Assembly: GCA_963736115.1 (NCBI GenBank)
Contig: CAVTNR010000008.1
Location: forward strand, 32,001-96,000
DNA: 64,000 nucleotides
Direction: 5' to 3'
DNA from: an uncultured bacterium
GTDB taxonomy: Bacteria; Zhuqueibacterota; QNDG01; DTFT01
Position 1 is the first letter of the stretch. The number at the start of each line of letters is the position of its first letter. The notes under the pieces were generated by a model. The model worked only from the letters and a program-made list of their open reading frames with translations. It searched no databases and had not been told where the DNA came from. The position numbers were made by a program, and so were the translations under genes. Below, one piece after another: positions 1,290-61,623 of this stretch.

Positions 1290-4200
1290 TTATTTAATCC
1301 GCTTGATCCTCTTCTTTGTCTTTCCCTCGGATTCGGTCTTCATTTTAAATCGGTTTTTGCCTGCTGCGGTTTTTGATGTCTTTCGTCCGGTCATCTTGCG
1401 GGTTTTCATCTTTTTCGATTTTAAGGCGGTCTGTTTTTTCGGGGCGGGATGTTTCGGTTTATCGTCGGCCGGTCGCTTTGATTTCACGGAAGGTTTCATC
1501 TTCCCTGATGCGGGACGGTTTATGATCTTCCCCGCCGCTTCCAGCAGTTTCTCCGCCTGATACTCCGACCGGTTCATGGCCGCATCCAGGCCTCGTACGA
1601 TCCGAAACGCCCCGGAGAGGCGGGCCAGGGCCGCGGCTGTTCCGACAGACACGGCTTCCACGGCTTCCAATGTCAGCAGCCAGTCCGCCGTCTCCTCGAA
1701 CGCTTCTTTGTTGAACCAGTCGATGTCATGGAACCGGTTGATTCTCAGGAAATCCCGAACTGCGCCGTCTTCCAGCAGTGCGGACAGAAGGACGGATACG
1801 GATGCGCCGTATGTCCGGCCCGCCCAGTCCGAGAAGCGGACCAGCATTCTCAGTTCGGTGACGGACTTCCACGCGTCTTCTTCCGGTTCGCCCAGATCCC
1901 TGAGCATGCGTACCGCCACGTCTCCGAAACGCCAATCGTCCAGACCGGCCCGGCTCTTCTCCGGCCAGCGGGTCATATCCGTTATCTTTCCGAGCCTATG
2001 CAGCACAGCCCAGGCGAAAAGCATGGCCGGCCGCCTGGGGTCCGCGTCCAAAAATGACTGAACGCGCCGCCGGACCGCGGCAGTTACAGCCGTCCCCATT
2101 CCCGATCCCGGTCTTCTGAAGGACAGGCGGTTCCCCGCGGTGATCAGCGAGATCACGGTTTCCATCCGTAGTTCCGTTTCAGCCGAAACAGAGCCGGCGT
2201 CTCCGGCCGCGCCTGTTTTTCCCTTCCATCCGGAGAGAAACGCGCCGATTTTCGGCCGGAGTGAGGCGATCCAGGCCGGATCGGGCCGCGATCCCCTGCA
2301 GGCTAGAACCCGCTTCAAAACTCCGGCGTTCAGCAGCGCTTCGAGCGCCTCGATGACGGGCCGGATGAAGAGAAAGCGCATTTCCGACTCGATGTCGGCC
2401 ACGCCCCGGCCGTCCAGCAGGGCGGCCAGTTCCGCGTACGGCGAACCGCCGCCGTCCGAGACCTCCCGGAAATCCATGAACACGCGGCGTTCGTACGCGT
2501 GCAGGTCCACGCGCCACCCGTGCCGGTGGACGTCGGCGCAGCTGCGGATGTATTCCAGTCCTCCGACCGAATCCCGGTAAATACAGAAGCGGTCCGCATG
2601 GTCCGCAAGGCCCAGCCCCTCGGCCAGGGTCCTGCGCACGAGCCGTTTTCCATCCGCGGACGCGACGGAAACCGGGCAGGACTCCCGTATCCATCCGGAT
2701 GCGTGCTCGTATTTGTTGTGGACCAGAACCAGCGCCCGGTCGGGCCCGGACCGGTTGGTGTAGGCGAACACGTTTTCCGCTGCGCGGCCGTCCGGCCCGA
2801 CGCAGTCGTAGAGCAGAAAATGCTCCACGCCCGCGAACAGGCGCCGCCTGTGCAGAAGCGGGAATATCTCGCGCCTGTGCCGGCTGACCAGAGTTTCGTC
2901 CGGGGTCTCGTCCCAGTACGCCTTCCGGTACTCCATTCCGTACTTTTCGGAAAATCCCTCGATCTGGCCATGGCCGAACATGGGGAGCCCGGGTAAAGTG
3001 CACATCAGCGTGCAGATGCTGAAATACTTGTCGCCGTTTCCGAACTGATCGACGGCCGTGCGCTCGTCCGGGTTGTTCATAAAGTTCACGTATCGCTTCA
3101 GGATCTCCGGGTCGAACTCCAGCGTGCTCCGGATCGCGGCCCGGTACTTGGCGTTTTCCTCGTCCCGGAGCATGTTCATGAACGCGCTGTTGTACACCCG
3201 GTGCATGCCGAGCGTGCGCACGAAATACCCCTCCATCAGCCAGAACGCTTCGGCCAGCAGGAGCGTATCGGGCGCCTCCGCAGCCACGCGGTCAACCACC
3301 TGGCGCCAGAACTCTTCGGGCATGGCCGCGTCGAACTGCGCCTTCGGCATGCCGAAATCGGACCGGGACGGGATGGCCCCGCCCGTTCCGGGTTCCGGGA
3401 ACCACAGGCGGTGGAAATGCTTCTTCGCGAGCGTCATGGCCGCGTCGAAACGGATGATGGGGAACATCCGGGCGACGTGCAGTATGGCGCCGATCATCGC
3501 CTCGCGCACGTCCGGCCGCAGATAATCGAGCTGGGCGGTGTCGTTCCACGGCATGCTGGTGCCGTCGTTCCCGTGGTACACATAGCGGACCGATCCGGTC
3601 GCGCGGTCCACGCGCTTGAACACCACGGCCGCGTCGCTGCGGCTGTAGTAGTGGTCCTCCAGGTAGATGCCCGTGCGGCCGTCCTCGGAGAGATCCGGCC
3701 CGTCGAAGGAATAAGCGGGAAAGGGACTGTAGTCGAGGGAAACGAAACGTTCCGGGTGTTCCGTCATCCAGATCGAATCGATGCTCATGTGATTGGGCAC
3801 CAGGTCGCTGGCCATGCGGATGCCGCGCATCATCGCGCGGTTCCGCAGGTCCCAGAAGGCGGATTCGCCTCCCAAGTCGTCGGCGATCCGGTAATCGAAC
3901 AGCGAGTAGGCCGAGGCCAGGGCCTCCGGATTGCCGCAGAGCTGTTTGATCCGGCGCGAAGCCCGGCTGCGTTCCCACAGGCCGATGAGCCAGAGGCCGG
4001 TGAAACCCGCGGCCGCCAGGCGGTCGAGCTCCGAATCCGGAATCTGGTCGAGCCGGGTGAGAGTGGTCCCGGCCGCCCTGGAGATCTGGTCGAGCCAGAC
4101 ATAGGCGTTTTTCGCGATCAGCACGAGGCGCGGCATCCAGTCCCGGTCCGGGCTGTAATGCTCAACCTCCGGATTGAGCCCCGAGAAATCCGGGACCGAC

Positions 4201-6548: not shown

Positions 6549-6654
6549 AGTTCATAGTTCATGGTTCATAGTTCATAGTCCTGGTAAAAAGCGGATTTCA
6601 TAGTGGACAAACTCCATCTTTTGCTATGAACCATGAACTATGAACTATGAACTT
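6549..6654. repeat. Inverted pair of heptamer (GTTCATA/G)n tracts
   Basis: (gttcatR)x4 at 6550-6578 and reverse-complement tract at 6624-6653. Confidence 0.9.
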
Positions 6655-6692: not shown

Positions 6693-8279
6693 ATGATCCC
6701 CTCTCGCCCTATGCTCCAGTCCATCAACCCCGCCACGCTCGAAACCGTCGGGCAGGTGCAGGTCACGCCTCCGGAAGCGGTTGCGGAGGTCGTTGCCTCC
6801 GCGCAGGCCGCGTTCCCGGCCTGGCGGGACGCGGGCCTCAAAACCCGTATCGCGGTTCTGGAGAGGGCACGGCAGCTCATGCTCGAGCGTTCCGAGCGTT
6901 TCGCCCGGCTGATCACCGAGGAAATGGGCAGGCCTTTCGTGGAATCCATGGTCATGGAAATGGAGGCCAGCGTCGATCTGCTGGGGTATTACAGCCGCAA
7001 GGCTCCGGATTTCCTCAGGGACAGGCGCGTTCCCCTGCATAACATTTTTTTCAAGAGGCGTAAAAGTTATATCCATTTTTCTCCGCTGGGAGTGCTCGGC
7101 GTGATCGCGCCCTGGAACTGGCCCGTTCTCATCCCGCTTGGTTTCATCGCGCCGGGCCTGCTCGCGGGGAATGCCGTCATCCTCAAGCATTCCGACCTGA
7201 CGCCGCTGGTCGCGGAGGAGCTTCGGCGGTTGTTCCTGGACGCCGGGGTCCCGGAGGCGGTTTTCCGGACCGTGCATGGGGGCGGCGATGTCGGCGCCGC
7301 GCTTGTGGACGCGAAAACCGAGCGTATCTTCTTCACGGGCAGTACCGAAGTCGGCCAGAAGGTGATGGCGCACGCCGCGCGTTCCCTCAAGAAGGCGGTT
7401 TTGGAACTGGGTGGAAGCGATCCCGCCATCGTGTGCGACGACGCGGACATCGAAAACGCGTCCAGCGGCATTGTCTGGGGCGCTTTCACCAACTGCGGAC
7501 AGAACTGCAACAGCGTCGAACGCGTCATTGTGGACGCCTCCGTGGCCGGCCGCTTCATCGAGGCCGTGGTGGAGAAAACGAAGCGGCTGAGGCTGGGCAA
7601 CGGCATGGACCCGGGAACGGACGTCGGGCCCCTGGCTTCTGAGGCGCAGTTGAGGAAGACGGAGGACATTGTGCGCGCCGCGGAGAGCAGCGGCGGACGC
7701 GTGCTCTGCGGCGGCCGGCGGCCGGCGGGAACGACCGGGCACTTTTACGAGCCGACCGTGATTCAATGGAGCCGGACCGATCCGGCGCCGTCGGACGAGG
7801 AGCTGTTCGCGCCCGTCCTGTTCATCACCCCATCCATCGGCGACGGGGACGCCATCCATCTGGCCAATGCCTCGTGCTTCGGTCTGGCCGCATCGGTCTG
7901 GACGACGGACCGCGGACGGGGCGAGCGGATCGGCCGGGAGATCGAATCGGGCACGGTCATGATCAACGACGTTATCGTCTCGTTCGGCATCGCGGAGGCC
8001 GGGTGGACGGGCGTCAAGAAGAGCGGGGTCGGCTGGGTGCATGGTGAAAAAGGGCTGGACGAAATGGTGAACATCCAGTACGTGCACAGTGATCCGCAGC
8101 TGCGCATGCAGAAGTTCTGGTGGTTCCCCTATTCCGGACGCATGGTCCGGGGCATGAAGGCGGGCATGACGTTCCTGTTCGACCGGAACATGTTCCGTAA
8201 ACTGGCCGCACTTCCCGCGGTTCTGATCCATTTTACGGCGTACCTGGTCCGGAACAGCAGGCGGGAGGATAAACTATAA
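6693..8279 (+). CDS. Aldehyde dehydrogenase family protein
   Basis: SINPAT, IAPWNWP, FTGSTEVG, LELGGSDP, NCGQNC (catalytic Cys), EELFAPV. Confidence 0.92.
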   Translation: MIPSRPMLQSINPATLETVGQVQVTPPEAVAEVVASAQAAFPAWRDAGLKTRIAVLERARQLMLERSERFARLITEEMGRPFVESMVMEMEASVDLLGYYSRKAPDFLRDRRVPLHNIFFKRRKSYIHFSPLGVLGVIAPWNWPVLIPLGFIAPGLLAGNAVILKHSDLTPLVAEELRRLFLDAGVPEAVFRTVHGGGDVGAALVDAKTERIFFTGSTEVGQKVMAHAARSLKKAVLELGGSDPAIVCDDADIENASSGIVWGAFTNCGQNCNSVERVIVDASVAGRFIEAVVEKTKRLRLGNGMDPGTDVGPLASEAQLRKTEDIVRAAESSGGRVLCGGRRPAGTTGHFYEPTVIQWSRTDPAPSDEELFAPVLFITPSIGDGDAIHLANASCFGLAASVWTTDRGRGERIGREIESGTVMINDVIVSFGIAEAGWTGVKKSGVGWVHGEKGLDEMVNIQYVHSDPQLRMQKFWWFPYSGRMVRGMKAGMTFLFDRNMFRKLAALPAVLIHFTAYLVRNSRREDKL

Positions 8280-8304
8280 TAATGTTCATCGTTCTTGGTT
8301 CTTC

Positions 8305-8328
8305 GTAGCCCACGGCTTCAGCCGTGGG
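8305..8328 (+). repeat. GTAG-tagged REP-like palindrome
   Basis: GTAG-cccacggc-ttca-gccgtggg, the GTAG + hairpin REP layout. Confidence 0.6.
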
Positions 8329-8337
8329 TTAAAAAAT

Positions 8338-8496
8338 GTAGGTCCGAAATGGTCCCGCTTTGCGGGACCAAGGTATTGTATATTTTTTAATATATTGAAG
8401 GCCCGCTTCCTTTCGCGGGCCTTTCGGACAAATGATCGAAAACAGATGTCCGATAGCCTCGTCCCGCGGATGGGGGGCTCGGCATATCAGACCTAC
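8338..8496. repeat. Composite GTAG-tagged palindromic element (GTAGGTCCGAAAT family)
   Basis: Starts gtaggtccgaaatg, ends catatcagacctac; 8446-8496 shares both ends with 41995-42085. Confidence 0.7.
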
Positions 8497-8516
8497 TGAA
8501 AGATGGAGCTTCCGAT

Positions 8517-8873
8517 ATGAATTCTTCTTTGGAAGACATCAACCGCCGGCGCAAAAAGGCGCACTCCCGGCTTCTGGAGCTCGACTCCAAGGTTTACAAG
8601 GCCTTTCTCGACATGGAAAAGGCCGCGTACACCGACGGGGCACTGGCAAAGAAACACAAGGAACTGGTTGCCGTGGGCATATCCGTTGTCATGGATTGCG
8701 AGTCGTGCATGCAGTGGCACATTGAACAGGCGGCTGCCGCCGGAGCCGTGATGCGCGAAGTGCTCGAGGCAGTGGAAGTCGGCATTGAGATGGGAGGAGG
8801 CCGGGCGACCGTGTCCGCCCGCTTCGCGCTGGAGGTGATGGAGGAGGTCTTCAAAGGGGAATTGCCATCGTAG
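8517..8873 (+). CDS. Carboxymuconolactone decarboxylase / AhpD-like protein
   Basis: GAL..K.KEL.A.G.S + CESCMQWH (CxxC-x-x-x-H) AhpD core. Confidence 0.88.
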   Translation: MNSSLEDINRRRKKAHSRLLELDSKVYKAFLDMEKAAYTDGALAKKHKELVAVGISVVMDCESCMQWHIEQAAAAGAVMREVLEAVEVGIEMGGGRATVSARFALEVMEEVFKGELPS

Positions 8874-8912
8874 ATCCGGAATGGCCCCACCATTTTATTA
8901 CCTGCAAGGCGG

Positions 8913-9023
8913 TGTCATTCCGGAAATTTCTGCCGGAATGTCATCCCCTCAGTTTTCAGGCGGGATGTCATCCCCGAGTTCTTCTGTCGGGATGTCATCC
9001 CCGAGTTCTTCTGTCGGGGATCT
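8913..9023 (+). repeat. Tandem array of 4 palindromic 26-31 bp units (TGTCATCCCC...CGGGA)
   Basis: Units at 8913, 8939, 8966, 8993; last is full length tgtcatccccgagttcttctgtcggggatct. Confidence 0.95.
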
Positions 9024-9056
9024 GAGTGCTGTATTTCACAATCGGGAGGGATTGGA

Positions 9057-9347
9057 ATGCGGCAATACTGCGTTTACATTCTGGCCAGCAGGAAAGATGG
9101 GGTTCTTTACATTGGAGTGACGAATGATCTGATCAGGAGGGTTTTTGAGCATAAAAACAATCAGGTCGAAGGTTTTACTAAACGATACAATGTTCACAGG
9201 CTTGTGTATTTCGAGATGACCAGTGATGTGAATGCAGCCATTGGGAGAGAGAGGGCGCTGAAGAAATGGAACCGTGCCTGGAAAATTCGGTTGATCGAAA
9301 AAGTGAATCCGGAATGGAAGGATCTGTATCCTGAATTAATCCAATGA
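9057..9347 (+). CDS. Small stand-alone GIY-YIG nuclease (YhbQ/UPF0213-like)
   Basis: YCVYIL...LYIGVT.DL.RR..EH, FT.RY, RE..LK.W.R.WK..LI...NP.W.DL; GGGAGG RBS; AT-richer than neighbours. Confidence 0.92.
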   Translation: MRQYCVYILASRKDGVLYIGVTNDLIRRVFEHKNNQVEGFTKRYNVHRLVYFEMTSDVNAAIGRERALKKWNRAWKIRLIEKVNPEWKDLYPELIQ

Positions 9348-9364
9348 TGGATAAACTTTTATGA

Positions 9365-9395
9365 AGACCCCCGCCTGAAGAATGCGGGGGTGACA
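9365..9395 (-). repeat. Inverted copy of the palindromic unit immediately downstream of the GIY-YIG gene
   Basis: Reverse complement reads tgtcacccccgcattcttcaggcgggggtct. Confidence 0.9.
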
Positions 9396-9433
9396 GGTGT
9401 CGTTAAAGGGGGTGACAGAAGCATCAATGGGTG

Positions 9434-9734
9434 TGTCATCCCCTCAGTTTTCAGGCGGGATGTCATCCCCTCAGTTTTCAGGCGGGATGTCATCCCCGCA
9501 GTTTTAAGGCGGGAAGTCATCCCCTCAGTTTTCAGGCGGGAAGTCATCCCCTCAGTTTTCAGGCGGGAAGTCATCCCCTCAGTTTTCAGGCGGGATGTCA
9601 TCCCCGGATTCTTCAGGCAGGATGTCATCCCCGGATTCTTCAGGCAGGATGTCATCCCCGCAGTTTTAAGGCGGGATGTCATCCCCTCAGTTTTCAGGCA
9701 GGATGTCATCCCCGAGTTCTTCTGTCGGGGATCC
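9434..9734 (+). repeat. Tandem array of 11 palindromic units (ten 27 bp + terminal 31 bp)
   Basis: Units start at 9434, 9461, 9488, 9515, 9542, 9569, 9596, 9623, 9650, 9677, 9704; consensus TGTCATCCCCtcAGTTTTCAGGCGGGA. Confidence 0.97.
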
Positions 9735-9759
9735 GGGCCGGTCCGATGTATCAGGAAGG

Positions 9760-10641
9760 TCACGAAGAAATTCCGTTCATCCTCTCCAAGACCTTGTACA
9801 GCGCCTGTGTGCCGAGCCGGTCGTATCCCATTTCCATGGCCGCGCTGTAAAGCTGGTTCGCGAGCACGAGCCCCGGAAGAGCCAGGTTCATCCTGCGCGC
9901 CTCCTCGAGCGCAATGCCCATGTCCTTCACGAAGTGCCGGATGAAGAATCCGGGATCGAAATTTCCGGCCGTGATGCGGCGGCCGAGGTTGTTCAGGGAC
10001 CAGGACGCGGCCGCGCCTTTGCCGATCACGTCGATCACCGCGTCCGGCCCGAGGCCCGCTTTCACGGCGTACAGCAGGGACTCAACCGTGCCGACCATGG
10101 TGGAGGCGATGAGAATCTGATTGGACATTTTGGTGTGCTGGCCCTTGCCCGGTCCGCCCATGAGGCTGATTGTCTCGCCCATGATCTGAAAGAGAGGCAG
10201 TACGGATTCAAACGCCTCCCTGTCCCCGCCGGCCATGATCGCGAGCTTTCCGGTTCTCGCGCCGACATCGCCGCCGGACACGGGCGCGTCGAGCGCTGCG
10301 ACGCCCCTGGTCGCGGCTTCCTGGTGAATGCGTTCCGCGAGGGACGGCTTGGACGTGGTCATGTCCACCACGACACTGCCCTTTTTCGCGCCCGCCAGGA
10401 GTCCCCTTTCCCCGAGAAAAACCTTCTCCACGTCCGCGGGATACCCGACGATGGCGAAGGAAATGTCCGAGGCTTCCGAAACCGTTTGGGGGTCGTCGCA
10501 CCAGACCGCGCCTTTTTCAACGAGCGGATCGGCTTTGGACCGGGTTCGGTTGTGGACCCGCACCGGGTATCCCTTCTCCAGTATCCGTCCCGCCATGGAA
10601 AGACCCATGACGCCGGTGCCCACCCAGCCGACGGTTTTCAT
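9760..10641 (-). CDS. NAD(P)-dependent beta-hydroxyacid dehydrogenase (3-hydroxyisobutyrate / 2-hydroxy-3-oxopropionate reductase family)
   Basis: VGWVGTGVMG Rossmann motif, LDAPVSGG, GQHTKMSNQ, HFVKDMGIAL. Confidence 0.92.
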   Translation of the reverse strand: MKTVGWVGTGVMGLSMAGRILEKGYPVRVHNRTRSKADPLVEKGAVWCDDPQTVSEASDISFAIVGYPADVEKVFLGERGLLAGAKKGSVVVDMTTSKPSLAERIHQEAATRGVAALDAPVSGGDVGARTGKLAIMAGGDREAFESVLPLFQIMGETISLMGGPGKGQHTKMSNQILIASTMVGTVESLLYAVKAGLGPDAVIDVIGKGAAASWSLNNLGRRITAGNFDPGFFIRHFVKDMGIALEEARRMNLALPGLVLANQLYSAAMEMGYDRLGTQALYKVLERMNGISS

Positions 10642-12052
10642 TTTTCGCGGACTCCCTTCTTTTCGCGGGCCATGAGGATGAAATAAACCGGAAGGCCCAG
10701 GCAGACGATGCACAATCCCATGAGCGAATCCCTCGGATCCGAGATGAGTGTGTTCACCACGAAAGCGGCCGCAACCAGAATGAAAGCGGCGGGGACGACC
10801 GGATAGCCCCAGGTCCGCACGGGCCGGGCCGCGTCCGGACGCTTCCGCCTCAGGACGAACACCGCCGATGCGGTCAGGCCGTAGAAAATCCAGGCGGCGA
10901 ATATCACGTAGGTGAACAGCTGGTCAAACCGTCCGGACAGGGTCAGGACGGCAGGCCCAGACCGCCTGCACGAGTATGGACACATGCGGCGTGCGGAAAC
11001 GCGGGTGCACGTCCGCCAGGCGGCTGAAGAAGACGCCGTCCTTTGCCATGGCATAGGTGACACGCGGGCCCGAGAGCACCATGCCGTTCACGGTTCCGAA
11101 TGTCGAGACCAGAACGGCCGCGGATACGATGCCGCCGCCCGCGGGGCCCATGAATGACGGACGCCGCGTCCGCGGCGACCAGGCGGGACGCGGCGATGTC
11201 CCGGAGCGGAAGCGCGTACGCATAGGCCGCGTTGGCCGCGAGATAGAGCGCCAGAACGATGACGCTTCCCGCGGCCAGGGCCAGGGGCACGTTCTTTTTC
11301 GGATCGATCACCTCTCCGGCCATGTAGGTGGTGTTGTTCCAACCGTCGTAGGACCAGAGCGCGGCCACCATGGCGAGACCGAAGGCCTTGAACAGGTCCG
11401 CGCCTCCGACTTCGGGCCACAGAGGACGGAACACGCCTTGCGGGGGTTCGGCAAAAGCGAAAATGGCGATGATGAGACCGACGAGGGCGCCGACCTTCAG
11501 GAAGGTGAACACGTTCTGCACCCAGCCTCCGGCCTTGACTCCGACCGCGTTCACTGCCGAGAGCAGAAGAATGCAGGCGATGGCAACGAGCTTGACGCCG
11601 ATCTCAGGGATCGTCACACCCAGGGGATGAACGGACGCGTGATACGCGGTCTGCAGGCCTGAGGGGACGAAATAACCGACGTACATGGCGAATGCCACGG
11701 CCACGGCCGCGATGGATCCGGCCTTCACGACCAGGAACTCCGTCCACCCGAACAGGAAAGCCGGAAACCGGCCGAAGGCTTCGCGCAGGTAGGCGTACTG
11801 TCCGCCCGCGTCCGGAATCATGCCCCCGAGTTCGGCATAGGACAGGGCGCCGGCCCAGGACAGCAGGCCCGCGACGGTCCACACGAGAACAATGGCGAGA
11901 AAGCCGGGCAATTGACCGGCAATGGTGTTGGGAACGAGGAATATGCCGGACCCCACCACGGAGCCCACGAACACGGCCACCGTGGCCACGGGGCCCAGGG
12001 CGCGGAGTAGGGTGGGGGGAGGCGGATCGGGCCTACGACCGGGAGGGTTCAT
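10638..12052 (-). CDS. APC-family amino acid permease (two apparent frameshifts near 11155 and 10950)
   Basis: VGSVVGSGIF, YAELG...P.AGG.Y.YL, LWSYDGW, GPRVTYAMAKDG, RPVRTWGYP distributed over three frames. Confidence 0.85.
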
Positions 12053-18936: not shown

Positions 18937-21654
18937 TTAATGCAGTGTCACTCCGAGATTCACGATCGGGGTGAACCCCAGCATGGGAATGTCGCGTGGA
19001 ACGGCCGGAACGACCTGGCCTTGCTGTGCGGCCCACCAATCGAATGAATAGTCACGATAGAGGACATTTTTCCGGTCGAAAATGTTCAACAGTGACATGC
19101 CGAATTCCCAGTTCAGCATGAGAAAATTATTGAACCGTCTGGTGATCTGAAAATCAACCCTTTGATACGATGGGAGCCGGGAACTGTTGATCAGACCCCT
19201 TTCAACGATAGAATGGTACTCGCCATACCATGCTGAGTATTCGGGTGTATAGGGTTTGCCGGACGCAAAGCAACCGCTAATCGAGAATCGGATCGATGCG
19301 AGTTCGAATGCCGCGACTCCCTTGAGTTCGTGCGTCCGGTCTTCATCTGCAGGCATGGGACCGCCCGAGTACCCGTCAAAAGAACTTAGGCGGGAATCCA
19401 GCGTGTATTCAGAACGGTTCAGACGGTAGGATATCCAGCCGGTGATAACTCCGTCCTTTTTTTGCGCTGTCCAGGAAAAACCCTTTGCCACGCCGGATCC
19501 TGGATAACCCCCAATCCGGTCTTGAGGCCAGAACTGCGGGTAGGACTTGCGATACCCTTCCATTGACAGGCCCCATACTTCCGTTTCGTATCGAATATCC
19601 AGGATCACATGCCTGTGAGCGTTCAACATATAGTACTCATCCATTGTTTCGAACCGCATCCAGTAGGCGAGATTCGGTCGCAGATACAGGGACAGGTAAT
19701 CTTCATTCCTTATAAACTGATGATATTCCCCGAAGGAGATGCCTGTTTTTAGCCGACTGTGGATGATGCCGTTGATCGATAGGCGCGGTTCGAGAAAGAA
19801 GTGACGCTCACTTCCCCAGCTTACCGGTTGGTACGAGGTGATGGAGTCCGTGCGGTATCCGGGGCCTCCGCGGTATCTAAATTCGGAGAATATCCCCCTT
19901 AAACCCAAATTTACGGAAAATAAGGGAGTGGGTGTCCAGCGGTTCTGAATGTAGGCGATTTTATTGATGACGCCATCGAGCGACTTTTGTTTCTCCTCGA
20001 CTAACTGATCCAGAATATTATAATTATATTCGCGCCACAGGACGTCGTTTTGCGTGAAGTTCAGTCCGTATTCGATATTGATTTTGTCGAAATGAAGTCG
20101 ATTGCCGAGCTTGAATGTCCATTCTTTCAGACGGTAGCGAGTCGCATGATTGCGCCACAGATACGAAATGGAATCCCCGTTCCGGGTGCCCCTCTCCTCA
20201 ATCCAATTGGGATGGAAGTCCGAATATGTCGCGGAGAAAGCTGATGTGTGCGAGAGATTCCACTCATGATGCCATTTTGCGGAAATGCCCCAATTCTTCA
20301 GTCGTTCCCAGCCACCGTTGAAATGATGGCCCGCTGAATCGTCGTAAACAGCAACGGTTCTGTCTTTCTCCTGCTTATAGTAAAAGGTGGATGAAAACCG
20401 GTCGAATGTGGAGCCTGAATAGGATATTCTAGCCGCGAAATCCGAGAATGAATACCTGCGCTTCGCAGGTGTGTCCACAGGGCGGTCGTTGATCCACATG
20501 CTGTAATTTGAGCGGTGGAGTCCCTTGACCATCAGAAAATCATCGATATCACCATAATATTTTCCGGTGATTATATTGTCATGCGATTTTCTTGCCCCAG
20601 TGAACAAGCGGAGTTTTTTCGTCAAGGGCCATTCCACAAAGGCGTTTGCGTGGAACGGGTCAGCGCCAATGCCGGCGTTGAATCGGCACTCCGGAACCGT
20701 ATTGCCGGTAAGTTCGATGATGCCGCCGGCCTGCTCCCCGTATGGGGCCGGATATCCGCCTTTCCAGACGGTCACTTTCTCGATCATGCGTGGATGCAGA
20801 GGTCCCAGCCATCCGTAGTACGTGCCCGTCTTGCGGATAGGGATGTCATCCAGGAGAAGGATGTTCTCATTATCCGTGCCGCCGTAGAAGCCGATTCTCG
20901 ACGCATGGTCGTAAGCAGCGCTGACTCCGGGTAGAAGCTGAAGCGAGCGGCCGAATGCGCCTGCCTCCGGAGAGGGGATGTAATCCAATTTCCGGGGAGA
21001 AAAGACGATTGCCTCTGTTCTGATGGAAAGTCCGGATTCCGCGAAACGTTCCGCTTCAACAAAAACGGATTCCGTTTCTATCGGTGTTTCGCGCATGGAA
21101 ATACGGAGTGAATCCCTGTCTGATAAGGATCGAAGCCGGATCTGCTCCGGGTGATACCCGATGTAGCTGACACGTATGGTGCAGGAGTCCGGATGGCTGT
21201 TCCGGAGAACGAAAGACCCGTCCGTGTCCGATGTCGTACCGGTGGCAGTCCCCTCCTGCACGATATTGGCGAAAGGCAGGCCGTTGCCGCTGGAAGCATC
21301 CACCACCCAGCCCCGTATCAGGCGTTCCGCGGTTCTGGCGTCATATAAAACGACGGGACCGGAGCGAATCCGCTTGAACGAGATTGAGAGGGGGGAAAGA
21401 ATGCGTTCCAGCGCCTGATCCAATGATAGGCACTCCAAGGAACAGGTGACGGTGCGGCCCTCGACCAGGTCGTCCTGGAATACGAACCCCATTCCGCTTT
21501 GGTCCGAAACGGCCTTCAACACATTCCGGAGCGGTTCCCGCTCGTAGTGTAGTGTCAGATTTCCGGGTTGCGGACTGGCGGGAAGTAGACTCCACGCAGG
21601 ATTATGCGCAAACAGCACCAGACTGATCACGAGCAGGCGGAAAAACCGGTTCAC
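18937..21654 (-). CDS. TonB-dependent receptor/transducer with STN and CarboxypepD_reg-like domains (copy 1)
   Basis: Signal peptide, STN (LRNVLKAVSDQSG..FVF), LPFANI..GT..GT.SD.DG.F, plug LQLLPGV, C-terminal RLPSYQR.D, N.FDR.N. Confidence 0.9.
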   Translation of the reverse strand: MNRFFRLLVISLVLFAHNPAWSLLPASPQPGNLTLHYEREPLRNVLKAVSDQSGMGFVFQDDLVEGRTVTCSLECLSLDQALERILSPLSISFKRIRSGPVVLYDARTAERLIRGWVVDASSGNGLPFANIVQEGTATGTTSDTDGSFVLRNSHPDSCTIRVSYIGYHPEQIRLRSLSDRDSLRISMRETPIETESVFVEAERFAESGLSIRTEAIVFSPRKLDYIPSPEAGAFGRSLQLLPGVSAAYDHASRIGFYGGTDNENILLLDDIPIRKTGTYYGWLGPLHPRMIEKVTVWKGGYPAPYGEQAGGIIELTGNTVPECRFNAGIGADPFHANAFVEWPLTKKLRLFTGARKSHDNIITGKYYGDIDDFLMVKGLHRSNYSMWINDRPVDTPAKRRYSFSDFAARISYSGSTFDRFSSTFYYKQEKDRTVAVYDDSAGHHFNGGWERLKNWGISAKWHHEWNLSHTSAFSATYSDFHPNWIEERGTRNGDSISYLWRNHATRYRLKEWTFKLGNRLHFDKINIEYGLNFTQNDVLWREYNYNILDQLVEEKQKSLDGVINKIAYIQNRWTPTPLFSVNLGLRGIFSEFRYRGGPGYRTDSITSYQPVSWGSERHFFLEPRLSINGIIHSRLKTGISFGEYHQFIRNEDYLSLYLRPNLAYWMRFETMDEYYMLNAHRHVILDIRYETEVWGLSMEGYRKSYPQFWPQDRIGGYPGSGVAKGFSWTAQKKDGVITGWISYRLNRSEYTLDSRLSSFDGYSGGPMPADEDRTHELKGVAAFELASIRFSISGCFASGKPYTPEYSAWYGEYHSIVERGLINSSRLPSYQRVDFQITRRFNNFLMLNWEFGMSLLNIFDRKNVLYRDYSFDWWAAQQGQVVPAVPRDIPMLGFTPIVNLGVTLH

Positions 21655-42085: not shown

Positions 42086-42108
42086 AAGTACTCAATTGTT
42101 ATAATTCA

Positions 42109-42198
42109 GAATCCGGAACCTGGAACCCAGAACCTGGAACCCAGAACCCGAACGATCTCGACCATGAACTATGAACCATGAACTATGAACTATGAACT
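42109..42198 (+). repeat. Two adjacent heptamer tracts (GAACCTG/GAACCCA)n and (TATGAAC)n
   Basis: ggaacctggaacccagaacctggaacccagaacc then ccatgaactatgaaccatgaactatgaactatgaac. Confidence 0.85.
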
Positions 42199-53168: not shown

Positions 53169-53624
53169 ATGTCCCAGGCCAAATCGTCCAAAAGCCGGGG
53201 ATTGGACCTGCTCGGCCCTATCGAGGAGGAGCTGGACTTCTTCTTTTCGCGGTTTTTCGGCTCTCCGTATCCCACCATTTACCGCAAGGAACTTTCCTGG
53301 CGGCCGCTTACGGATTTCTACGAAACGGATCTGGAATACGTGCTCCTGATGGAGCTGGCCCAGGTCAAGCCGGAGGACGTTTCCATCCAGCTTCAGGAGG
53401 GGATTCTGGCCGTGCGCGGAATGCGCAAAACATCGCCCCCGCGCGAAAGAAGACGATACCACAAGATGGAAATCAATTACGGCCCCTTCGAGCAGAAAGT
53501 GGCGGTTCCGGAGCCGGTCGACATGGATAAACTGTCCGCCTCATACCATGACGGATTTCTCGAAATCCGCATACCCAAAAAACGGCCGGACACCGGTCCG
53601 CGCATCGACATACAGGTGGAATAG
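53169..53624 (+). CDS. Hsp20/alpha-crystallin small heat-shock protein
   Basis: W.P.TD.YET, E..YG.F, A.Y.DG.LEI..PK. Confidence 0.93.
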   Translation: MSQAKSSKSRGLDLLGPIEEELDFFFSRFFGSPYPTIYRKELSWRPLTDFYETDLEYVLLMELAQVKPEDVSIQLQEGILAVRGMRKTSPPRERRRYHKMEINYGPFEQKVAVPEPVDMDKLSASYHDGFLEIRIPKKRPDTGPRIDIQVE

Positions 53625-53631
53625 AAAACCG

Positions 53632-56019
53632 ATGAACGATCCGAATCCAGGCATTCCCCATCATCCGGGCGAGTTCGGGGAAATGCCCGAAATCCCGCAG
53701 GAACTCCCCATTCTCCCGATGACCAATGTTCTCGTTTTTCCCTACGTGGTCGCGCCCCTCGTCATCTCGGACGAGCGCCGCATCGCCGTGGTCAACGAGG
53801 CGTTGTCCGACCGCAAGATGGTCGGCCTGTTCGCCGTCCGGACGAAGACGGACGGCGACGCCGAACCGGACAGCCTGAAATTGTACGACGTCGGCACCGC
53901 GGTGTTCATCCTGAAAATGTTCCGTTATCCGGACGGCACCATGGGGCTCATGGTGCAGGGCCTCTCGCGCATCCGGCTGGAGAGCATCACCAAGGCGGAG
54001 CCCTTTCTCAAGGGCCGGATCCGGCCCATCCCCGAGGCCGCCGCGGATACGGTCAAGATCAAGGCCCTGACGCGCGAGGTCACCGAAATTTTCCAGCAGA
54101 TCGTCTCCCTGTCCGCCTTTCTGCCTGACGAGCTCGGCCAGGCGATCACCAACGTGGACAACCCGGGCCGCCTGGCGGACCTGGTCGTTTCGAACCTCAA
54201 GCTGGACATCGCTGAACGCCAGGCCATACTCGAAACCCTGGCCGTGGAAAACCGCCTGATCCGCCTGCTGACCCTGCTCAACCGCGAGCTGGAGCTCCTG
54301 AAGCTCGGGAACAAGATCCAGTCCGAGGTTAAAAACAAGATCGAGGACAGTCAGAAGGAATACTACCTCCGCGAGCAGATGAAGGCGATCCAGAAGGAGC
54401 TCGGGGACAAGGACGAGCGGACCGCCGAGATCGAGGAGCTGAAGAGCCGCATCGAAAAGGCCGCGATGCCCAAAGAGGCGCGCGAGGCGGCGGAGAAGGA
54501 GCTGGACCGGCTCTCCAAGATGCCGCCCCAGGCCGCGGAGTACACCGTCTCTCGCACCTATCTCGACTGGCTGATCACCCTGCCCTGGAGCGCCGGCACC
54601 GAGGACAACATAGACATCGTCAAGGCCAAGGCCATCCTCGATGACGACCATTACGATCTGACGGACGTGAAGGACCGCATCCTCGAGTTTCTCTCCGTGC
54701 GCAAGCTGAAGAGCACGTCCAAGGGACCCATCCTCTGCTTCGTCGGCCCGCCGGGCGTGGGCAAGACGTCGCTCGGGCGGTCCATCGCAGCGGCCATGGG
54801 GCGCAAATTCGTCCGCTACTCTCTCGGCGGCATGCACGACGAGGCGGAGATCCGGGGTCACCGGAGAACCTACATCGGGTCCCTGCCGGGCCGGATCGTT
54901 CAGGGCGTCCGCAAGGCGGGTTCGAACAACCCCGTTTTCATGCTCGACGAGATCGACAAGGTCGGCACCGACTTCCGGGGCGACCCCGCCTCGGCCCTGC
55001 TCGAGGTGCTCGACCCGGAGCAGAACAACACGTTCTCGGACCACTATCTCGAAGTGCCCTTCGACCTGTCGAAGGTGATGTTCATTACCACGGCGAACGT
55101 GCTCGACACCATCCCGCGGCCCCTGCTGGACCGCATGGAAGTGCTGCGCCTGCCGGGTTACATTCTCGACGAGAAGATCCAGATCGCGAAGAAATACCTC
55201 ATCCCCCGCCAGATCGAGGAGAACGGGCTGAAGCGGGGCCAGATCCGATTCGACGACGCAGCGGTGCGGCGCATCATCGAGCACTACACGCGCGAGGCCG
55301 GCCTCCGCAACCTCGAGCGCGAGATCGGCACCTGCTGCCGCAAAGTGGCCCGTCTCGTCGCGGAGGGGAAGGAGAAGCGCGTCCGGATCACGCCGGAGAA
55401 GGCGGCCGAATTCCTCGGCCCGCGCAAGTTCTTCTCCGAGGCCGCCCAGCGCACGGACGAGGTCGGCGTGGCCACGGGTCTGGCCTGGACGGCAGTCGGG
55501 GGCGAGATCCTCTTCGTCGAGGCCACGGCCATGACCGGCGGAAAAGGCCTGGTGCTCACCGGACAGCTCGGTGACGTGATGAAGGAGTCCGCCCAGGCCG
55601 CGCTGTCGTACATCCGGTCGAACACCGCCCGGTACGGCATTCCGGACGACTTTTTCGCGGCCCGGGACATCCACATCCACATTCCAGAAGGCGCCACGCC
55701 CAAGGACGGGCCGTCCGCGGGCGTCACGCTGGCCACGGCGCTGGTGTCCCTGCTGGTGAACAAGCCGGTGAAGCACGACGTGGCCATGACGGGCGAGATC
55801 ACGCTCCGCGGGAAGGTGCTGGCCGTGGGCGGCATCAAGGAAAAGGTGCTCGCGGCCCAGCGGTCCGGCATTACCCATGTGATCCTGCCGAAGCTCAATG
55901 AAAAGGACCTTGTGGAGATACCGGAGCACATCCGGAAGCGAATGACGTTTCATTTCGCGGAGTGGCTGGACGACGTGCTGGCGTTGACCCTTGTGGATAA
56001 AAAGAAGAAAAAGAAATAG
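53632..56019 (+). CDS. lon: ATP-dependent protease La
   Basis: LON N-domain, GPPGVGKTS Walker A, LDEIDK, PKDGPSAG and GGIKEK catalytic dyad. Confidence 0.98.
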   Translation: MNDPNPGIPHHPGEFGEMPEIPQELPILPMTNVLVFPYVVAPLVISDERRIAVVNEALSDRKMVGLFAVRTKTDGDAEPDSLKLYDVGTAVFILKMFRYPDGTMGLMVQGLSRIRLESITKAEPFLKGRIRPIPEAAADTVKIKALTREVTEIFQQIVSLSAFLPDELGQAITNVDNPGRLADLVVSNLKLDIAERQAILETLAVENRLIRLLTLLNRELELLKLGNKIQSEVKNKIEDSQKEYYLREQMKAIQKELGDKDERTAEIEELKSRIEKAAMPKEAREAAEKELDRLSKMPPQAAEYTVSRTYLDWLITLPWSAGTEDNIDIVKAKAILDDDHYDLTDVKDRILEFLSVRKLKSTSKGPILCFVGPPGVGKTSLGRSIAAAMGRKFVRYSLGGMHDEAEIRGHRRTYIGSLPGRIVQGVRKAGSNNPVFMLDEIDKVGTDFRGDPASALLEVLDPEQNNTFSDHYLEVPFDLSKVMFITTANVLDTIPRPLLDRMEVLRLPGYILDEKIQIAKKYLIPRQIEENGLKRGQIRFDDAAVRRIIEHYTREAGLRNLEREIGTCCRKVARLVAEGKEKRVRITPEKAAEFLGPRKFFSEAAQRTDEVGVATGLAWTAVGGEILFVEATAMTGGKGLVLTGQLGDVMKESAQAALSYIRSNTARYGIPDDFFAARDIHIHIPEGATPKDGPSAGVTLATALVSLLVNKPVKHDVAMTGEITLRGKVLAVGGIKEKVLAAQRSGITHVILPKLNEKDLVEIPEHIRKRMTFHFAEWLDDVLALTLVDKKKKKK

Positions 56020-56089: not shown

Positions 56090-56120
56090 TGTCATCCCCG
56101 CGTTTTTTTAGCGGGGATCC
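56090..56120 (+). repeat. Solo copy of the TGTCATCCCC palindrome
   Basis: tgtcatccccgc-gttttttta-gcggggatcc (31 bp). Confidence 0.9.
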
Positions 56121-56194
56121 AGAGGAAGCGCGGAGAGGCCGGAGCCGCCAGGCATCGCTCAGTCGCAATAGGATCCCTGAAAACGGACAACCCC

Positions 56195-59439: not shown

Positions 59440-59590
59440 TGTCATCCCCGATTTCTTTTATCGGGGATCCAGGGGGGATATTTTCCTTAAATCCTGCGAC
59501 GGGCATGATGGTTTTGCGGGTGTGTCATCGTACCCTCTATGAGATACCGGTGATTTTCCGGATTCCCGCCAGAAGAATGCGGGAATGACA
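59440..59590. repeat. Inverted doublet of the TGTCAT palindrome (REPIN-like)
   Basis: Forward unit 59440-59470 and reverse unit 59560-59590, both 31 bp. Confidence 0.9.
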
Positions 59591-61548: not shown

Positions 61549-61592
61549 AATCGCGCGGCTATGATCGATACGCTTGATTCCCATCCCGCCCT

Positions 61593-61623
61593 GGATTCCC
61601 GCTGAAAGATCGCGGGAATGACA
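61593..61623 (-). repeat. Solo copy of the TGTCAT palindrome
   Basis: Reverse complement tgtcattcccgcgatctttcagcgggaatcc (31 bp). Confidence 0.9.

Follow-up and report, generated by a model that had tools for sequence, protein, structure and literature searches.

What kind of element places a very small nuclease gene between inverted copies of a hairpin, with arrays of related units on both sides, and does the nuclease spread the repeats that surround it? The question is raised by a locus in a stretch of 64,000 nucleotides (nt) from an uncultured bacterium of the Zhuqueibacterota (assembly GCA_963736115.1, contig CAVTNR010000008.1, positions 32,001 to 96,000), hereafter called the window, in which a GIY-YIG nuclease gene, ssn, occupies 9057-9347 on the plus strand. 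The locus is very probably an Ssn/SRM cassette of the type described by Chenal et al. (Nat Commun 2025, PMC11893778), with SRM standing for the "Ssn-related motif", and its product would be an Ssn-family endonuclease that cuts hairpin-bearing single-stranded DNA (ssDNA); this high confidence covers the identity and the cutting mechanism, not the role. Since the pairing of nuclease and hairpin was already published in 2025, the locus adds an example rather than a new system and is not to be counted as a new class. An earlier note on the same DNA had implied novelty for the combination of nuclease and repeat, which did not hold, as even the analogy to repetitive extragenic palindromic (REP) repeats and RAYT enzymes is included in the published account. 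With the window, the Ssn/SRM system nevertheless comes to include an uncultured lineage and a hairpin variant whose loop measures 9 nt.

Chenal et al. (PMC11893778) defined the Neisseria NTS repeat together with the degenerate SRM, and reported an SRM nearby for 71% of the ssnA homologues and on both sides for 42%. In their report, the 94-amino-acid (aa) SsnA binds the GTC-tagged hairpin as ssDNA only and cuts a few nucleotides upstream; the substitutions Y6A, Y17A and E64A abolish cutting, and three further homologues, four tested in all, act like SsnA. The CDD family defining Ssn is given there as cd10448 (GIY-YIG_unchar_3). In the literature, no paper besides Chenal et al. 2025 on the Ssn family or cd10448 was found by title and abstract, nothing relevant was listed that joins GIY-YIG to repetitive extragenic palindromic repeats, REPIN or RAYT, and the papers listed for GIY-YIG with inverted repeats, insertion sequence, hairpin or multicopy contained no further relevant one.

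Several observations argue for the membership of the window protein in this family. Pfam GIY-YIG (PF01541) covers residues 3-77 of the 96-aa product with E=4e-15 and no other Pfam family was found in it, so that the stand-alone GIY-YIG gene of the earlier note was borne out. As a stand-in for SsnA of N. meningitidis, a 94-aa open reading frame (ORF) of N. gonorrhoeae was used (L080:598-882, from the 2.17-Mb record NZ_CP119140.1, obtained by tblastn of a plasmid collection), its orthology being taken from its length, from Y6, Y17 and E64 and from the flanking NTS repeats. In that locus, the ssnA ORF is surrounded by NTS repeats, complete hairpins and one upstream half-site. The window protein aligns to the gonococcal ORF without gaps over 93 aa (93 of 94 residues) with 53% identity, 80% positives and E=6e-39 by BLASTP, inside the published homology criterion of E<1e-10 over >75% of length, and its 96 aa agree with the published single-domain form of ~94 aa. 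Residues Y7, Y18 and E65 align to Y6, Y17 and E64 of SsnA and are invariant in 34 homologues. The gene itself is intact, has a good ribosome-binding site (GGAGG at 9045-9049, plus strand, 7 nt ahead of the ATG), and retains all 27 positions that are invariant in the 34-sequence alignment of which it is part. Within the window, ssn is single-copy, the second-best tblastn match having E=0.076. In the plasmid collection, several records of 1.7-4.9 Mb, including two 2.17-Mb records of N. gonorrhoeae, look like mislabelled chromosomes, and therefore "plasmid" matches for ssn are not evidence of plasmid carriage.

The hairpin is found in complete form on both sides of the gene, making an insertion-sequence-like unit of 8993-9395. 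The left inverted end (8993-9023, plus strand) is the last unit of the upstream array and reads TGTC-ATCCCCGA-loop9-TCGGGGAT-CT; DNA folding of 8991-9026 gave an 8-bp stem at -7.4 kcal/mol. The right inverted end (9363/9370-9395, minus strand) follows closely on the stop codon; it is a complete SRM hairpin by the published pattern and reads TGTC-ACCCCCGC-loop9-GCGGGGGT-CT, with an 8-bp stem at -9.9 kcal/mol (z=-4.95) and an arm common to the inverted repeats I1-I8. On the bottom strand, 22 nt 5' of this hairpin, sits a half-site consisting of the tag and a C-rich left arm without a right arm (9405-9418, minus strand; TGTCACCCCC at 9416), the stems of this minus-strand run being 2 and then 8 bp. 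In general, a complete unit is composed of TGTC, an 8-bp stem (ATCCCCGA, ACCCCCGC, ATCCCCGC or ATTCCCGC with its complement), a T-rich loop of 7-9 nt, and CC or CT. Seven such units are present in the window, with stems of 8-9 bp and folding energies of -7.4 to -9.9 kcal/mol.

The arrays were delimited by Tandem Repeats Finder, which reported 8927-9018 (period 27, 3.4 copies) and 9434-9713 (period 27, 10.4 copies, 92% matches), together with in-register reading. The upstream array (8912-9023, plus strand) has 4 units with a 26-27-nt period and perfect stems of 7, 5, 5 and 8 bp. The downstream array (9434-9734, plus strand) has 11 units with a 27-nt period: ten degenerate units, each with tag, left arm, loop and a weakened right arm, followed at the 3' end by a complete hairpin at 9704-9734 (-7.4 kcal/mol), the perfect stems being 5, 5, 4, 4, 4, 5, 4, 4, 5, 4 and 8 bp. 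The unit-junction 14-mer GGGATGTCATCCCC occurs 22 times with up to two mismatches against 0.99 expected (largest shuffle 5). Three internal array units with perfect stems of 4-5 bp folded at merely -1.3 to -4.1 kcal/mol, two of them with z near zero. Because the internal units are poor hairpins and the last unit of each array alone is complete, these are not arrays of full palindromes. The earlier note was thus correct in the inverted complete units that bracket the gene and in the numbers of tandem units, four upstream and eleven downstream, and its arrays of a palindromic repeat stood in part: the 27-bp arrays are real, but complete hairpins are confined to their last units, and the internal units are weak.

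The association of nuclease and hairpin was examined in 79 homologous loci whose 3-kb flanks were kept, drawn from at least 591 relatives in a scan with one genome per species. The protein family is very large, with 7999 of the best 8000 scored candidates significant. Leaving aside the entry of the window itself, the closest relatives among the matches listed have 65-76% identity; those with names come from many phyla, and many homologues are on very short contigs. The closest of the 79 loci, L001, has 83% protein identity. The density of the tag GTCAYYCC is 5.8-5.9 per kb in the 200 bp next to the gene and falls to ~0.2 per kb at distances over 1 kb, an enrichment of about 27-fold; it lies within 500 bp of the gene in 65 of the 79 loci and on both sides in 46, and the association spans at least 17 phyla. 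The enrichment beside GIY-YIG genes across genomes, which the earlier note had put forward as a check, is therefore there. Usually, a plus-strand unit precedes the start codon by about 40 nt and a minus-strand unit follows 30-60 nt after the stop. Furthermore, a perfect stem of 5 bp or more is formed by 85 of the 96 units beside the gene; in most of them it is 8 bp long, begins directly after GTC and is followed by CC. When 60 units with 4-nt loops were compared, 5 of 8 stem pairs showed compensatory double changes. These amount to 35 cells, where shuffles give 3.6 and none of 500 shuffles reached that number, and by this covariation the hairpin is under selection.

By the published SRM pattern, 57 of the 79 loci (72%) have a match within 300 bp and 28 (35%) on both sides, at 2.27 against 0.10 per kb; these rates are close to the 71% and 42% of PMC11893778, whose SRM-defining genera Methylotenera, Nitrosomonas and Bradyrhizobium are also among the 79 loci. 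The two systems are alike in the ~95-aa single-domain GIY-YIG protein with the same catalytic residues, in the GTC-tagged 8-bp hairpin followed by C, in its inverted arrangement around the gene, and in the extra copies between genes. They differ in the hairpin, which in the window has a 9-nt T-rich loop and a ATCCCCGA/ACCCCCGC stem whereas the published NTS has ATTCCCGC with a 4-nt loop, and in the long 27-bp arrays of degenerate units, the word "tandem" being absent from the main text of PMC11893778. The host also differs, that of the window being uncultured and possibly KSB1-like: candidate division KSB1 supplies the only informative names among the Lon protease matches, the best of them at 76% identity. 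The Neisseria repeat dRS3 (ATTCCC-N8-GGGAAT) has the same palindrome core as the window repeat, which carries ATCCCC/ACCCCC variants and a longer loop. The UPF0213 or BH0048-type proteins also consist of a stand-alone GIY-YIG domain of ~100 aa; the solved structure nearest by sequence is of this type (PDB 1zg2), and its similarity is only marginal (E=0.007), which points to a different subfamily.

Several observations weigh against the assignment to the Ssn/SRM system. In 14 of the 79 loci no tag is present within 500 bp of the gene. No NCBIfam model scored above its cut-off for the window protein. Three window units (8993-9023, 9704-9734 and 59440-59472) fall outside the published SRM pattern, yet they fold as tagged hairpins of 8-9 bp. 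Only units with 6 or more of the 8 pairs entered the covariation set, which biases the figure of 99% pairing. Finally, the internal array units have no C after the palindrome, and since this C is the most important position for binding according to Chenal et al. 2025 (PMC11893778), these units may not be substrates of the nuclease.

By homology to the four tested enzymes, the window protein would recognise its hairpin solely in ssDNA. The recognised hairpin is predicted to comprise the GTC tag, an 8-bp stem of ATYCCCGN/NCGGGRAT, and then C. The enzyme would hydrolyse the hairpin-bearing strand a few nucleotides 5' of the tag, and its effect in the cell would be the cutting of hairpin-bearing ssDNA, for example of incoming or replicating strands.

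Four further complete units are dispersed in the window, all between ORFs, in agreement with the earlier note that the same hairpin recurs elsewhere. A solo SRM hairpin by the published pattern lies between a Lon protease gene and an aldehyde dehydrogenase gene (56090-56122, plus strand; -8.9 kcal/mol, z=-4.74) and another between malic-enzyme-like and LarA-like genes (61591-61623, minus strand; -9.0 kcal/mol, z=-3.97). The other two form a gene-less doublet upstream of ndk (59440-59472, plus, and 59558-59590, minus), whose units are ~85 bp apart. The layout of this doublet (59440-59590) is REPIN-like, and it has in common with the gene cassette the end hairpins only. The published SRM pattern matches the window 4 times, whereas first-order Markov simulations give 0.57 on average and never more than 3; no exact NTS was found in the window. 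The idea that doublets are deleted gene cassettes was rejected: their spacers have no convincing similarity to the ssn gene and are not recognisably gene-derived. A possible degenerate tagged hairpin (TGTCACTCCGA ... TCGGGGTGA) was also seen at 18945-18975, in the coding 3' end of a large ORF with CarboxypepD_reg and Plug domains. In this arrangement, the window resembles REP/RAYT systems, REPINs and BIMEs, with a single-copy nuclease gene between inverted tagged hairpins and with solo hairpins and inverted doublets between genes, and the REP/RAYT enzyme, like Ssn, acts on its hairpin in ssDNA. The two are unlike in that the window enzyme is a hydrolytic GIY-YIG nuclease and not a Y1 HUH transposase, and in that the tag is GTC, that of REPs being GTAG.

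A further regularity concerns the polarity of the arrays. Runs of tags 12-40 nt apart were collected, three at the window locus and 31 in the 79 loci, and a unit was called complete when it had a perfect stem of at least 7 bp. The complete hairpin is confined to the 3'-most unit in 26 of these 34 runs and to the 5'-most unit in none; of the others, 3 lack a complete hairpin altogether and 5 are mixed, among them a run composed of two such arrays end to end. In the upstream units, a pyrimidine-rich spacer leads to GTC and then to an exact copy of the 8-nt left arm. The array period is 18-22 nt where the hairpins have loops of 4-5 nt; in the window and L001, with a 9-nt loop, it is 27 nt. With the complete hairpin mostly at the 3' end alone, the incomplete units stack on the side where the published Ssn cuts, a pattern seen across many phyla and also in Neisseria, where one such half-site adjoins ssnA. 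This polarity may be a new regularity. The arrays could be by-products of cutting followed by repair or slippage, or else ladders of left arms that would pair in turn with the single right arm, in which case a ladder of cut sites would result. If the polarity reflects the action of the enzyme, growth of the arrays would be directly testable in a laboratory host.

The close relative L001 offers a view of the same site in an independent assembly. Its flanking genes are 87-91% identical to those of the window and the cassette is found at the same site with similar arrays around it, so that an assembly artefact does not account for the arrays. In L001, however, they are rearranged into a 188-bp higher-order repeat at 2503-3655 beside the gene cassette, with three gene-less modules, each composed of a forward hairpin, a ~65-bp spacer, and an inverted hairpin. 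In the L001 ssn gene (3001-3291), codon 48 is an in-frame TGA, and Arg73, which is otherwise invariant, is replaced by Leu (R73L). The gene is probably a pseudogene or carries a sequencing error, and hairpin arrays persist around it. From the rearranged arrays, the common cassette site and the stop in ssn, it appears that the repeats turn over fast while the cassette stays, and that the nuclease is dispensable in L001. A CMD-family gene of the window (8517-8873) and the spacer upstream of it (8280-8911) are absent from L001 at the matching place (2469-2500), so that the repeat array follows its aldehyde dehydrogenase gene almost at once. An empty site, which the earlier note had hoped to compare in relatives, did not turn up: L001, the sole close relative compared, is occupied.

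As to its role, the cassette may be an element of very small size, selfish or semi-domesticated, with the arrays, solo hairpins and doublets as its by-products. Beside this reading, four rival explanations were weighed. It is possible, though doubtful, that the unit of hairpin, ssn and hairpin, about 350-400 bp in length, is an active selfish transposon that moves itself with Ssn as a transposase-like enzyme, the solo hairpins, doublets and arrays being its non-autonomous copies or footprints. The Discussion of Chenal et al. (PMC11893778) raises the idea of repeat spread and likens NTS-ssnA-NTS to insertion sequences, IS200/IS605, REP/RAYT and BIMEs. Paralogous copies within one genome have in common only 355-419 bp, i.e. 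the hairpin, the gene and the inverted hairpin (L011/L027, L045, L035), with perfect 29-nt inverted ends in L045, and the tag-to-tag length stays at 343-519 bp in 37 loci. Consistent with such an element are also the doublets, one in the window and three in L001, which keep a left-type and a right-type hairpin, the stop and R73L in the ssn of L001, as in decaying elements, the many homologues on very short contigs, as expected of multicopy DNA, and the stacking of incomplete units on the cut side of the complete hairpin.

Several points speak against self-movement. GIY-YIG enzymes are hydrolytic, and neither the joining of DNA strands nor the covalent intermediate used by HUH transposases is known for them. 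The window cassette is like IS200/IS605 in being small, in subterminal hairpins recognised as ssDNA, and in the lack of target-site duplication; it is unlike them in having no HUH transposase, in the far smaller unit (343-519 bp), and in its end hairpins, which IS200/IS605 have on one strand but which are divided between the two strands in the window and, by the strict published pattern, in 24 of the 79 loci. Target-site duplications of 2-8 nt at offsets of 0-6 nt showed no excess over permuted flanks, and no conserved target was found beyond Y at -1/-2. Most paralogue pairs are just 67-86% identical, with one pair (L037/L054) at 95%, which indicates few recent copies. As the window and L001 both carry the cassette at this site, it has not moved since their divergence. 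The protein tree (80 proteins, 95 columns) is too poorly resolved to reveal horizontal transfer: only 5 branches are well supported, and phylum labels need 24 changes on it, where 16 is the least possible and shuffled labels need 29.1 on average. The facts that bear on the multiplication of the repeats are thus comparative ones: the cassette is the unit common to copies, target-site duplication was not detected, and the arrays are polar.

A more specific form of this idea, and an unlikely one, is that the hairpin-ssn-inverted hairpin unit (343-519 bp) is an autonomous mobile element spreading by a hydrolytic ssDNA nuclease and host repair, with the polar arrays as its footprints. Incomplete units of tag and left arm would then be added singly at the cut site, 5' of the complete hairpin, and larger hairpins would give longer array periods, 27 nt for a 9-nt loop as against 18-22 nt for 4-nt loops. 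If this were true, the autonomous hairpin-ssn-hairpin unit would rank among the smallest protein-coding mobile elements. The proposal of the earlier note that the nuclease cuts the hairpins and drives their spread accordingly divides into two: its clade is paired with the hairpins, and homologues cut ssDNA beside them (PMC11893778), but as the driver of spread or amplification it is only a candidate, both here and in that paper.

A second explanation, which can be advanced only tentatively, is a service to the host: the nuclease would be kept for ssDNA restriction, cutting hairpin-bearing single strands of transforming, conjugative or ssDNA-phage origin and tuning recombination near marked genes. 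In N. meningitidis, an ssnA knockout led to 5-fold more transformation by NTS-bearing DNA, and the effect disappeared with a mutated NTS (PMC11893778). The intact window gene, with its ribosome-binding site and its full set of invariant positions, fits a function that is maintained. Opposed to this, L001 appears to have lost the function of the gene and kept the repeats. The base composition does not separate the two explanations. The gene has 43.6% GC against 61% for the window, AT-richer than its surroundings as the earlier note had observed; in all 79 loci the ssn gene is lower in GC than its flanks, with a mean difference of 11.7 points, and its GC tracks the host GC (r=0.86), which fits a travelling element equally well. 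AT-richness as a sign of recent transfer was rejected on these grounds, being a property of the family and not a mark of recent arrival.

The remaining two explanations fare poorly. It is very improbable that a free-standing homing endonuclease of the GIY-YIG type stands here beside unrelated terminator-like hairpins or repeats made by assembly. GIY-YIG is a classic homing-endonuclease fold, and a simple terminator scan of 8200-10000 gave 5 sites against 1.8 expected; these matches, however, are array-junction palindromes followed by T-rich loops and not separate terminators. Unlike a GIY-YIG homing endonuclease, the protein, of only 96 aa, is a single domain without a separate DNA-binding domain, and it scores 17.7 bits for TIGR01453 against a cut-off of 56. 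Moreover, its phage homologues are just 34-36% identical, the arrays recur in the independent assembly of L001, and no Rfam family, nor any tRNA, was found anywhere in the window. A classical REP/RAYT system, in which the hairpins would be REPs that depend on a Y1 (HUH) transposase gene at another place, with the GIY-YIG gene as a bystander, is the least credible of all, for although short tagged hairpins do lie between genes and the gene between inverted copies as RAYTs do, none of 54 window ORF translations (ORFs of at least 90 aa in non-overlapping frames) matches a transposase family, the hairpin accompanies the GIY-YIG gene in 65 of 79 loci and at least 17 phyla, the tag is GTC, and the GIY-YIG protein itself cuts in the published system (PMC11893778).

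The cassette has an aldehyde dehydrogenase gene (6693-8279) and the CMD-family gene on its 5' side and a 3-hydroxyisobutyrate-dehydrogenase-like gene (9760-10713, minus strand) on its 3' side; no sigma-70-like promoter was found in 8200-10000. A second, unrelated repeat family is present in the window. AGTTCAT heptamers (4-5 copies) at 6549-6579 and the inverse ATGAACT at 6624-6653 form a long inverted repeat (6549-6653) between a DUF362 gene and the aldehyde dehydrogenase gene, and an ATGAACT array appears again at 42164-42198, adjoining a GAACCTGGAACCCA repeat at 42107-42153. As for the Lon protease gene near the solo hairpin, its longest ORF (53548-56019) encodes 823 aa. The best homologues are shorter, at ~795-800 aa, with alignments that cover 96-97% of the ORF, and translation therefore probably begins at a start codon beyond the first ATG.

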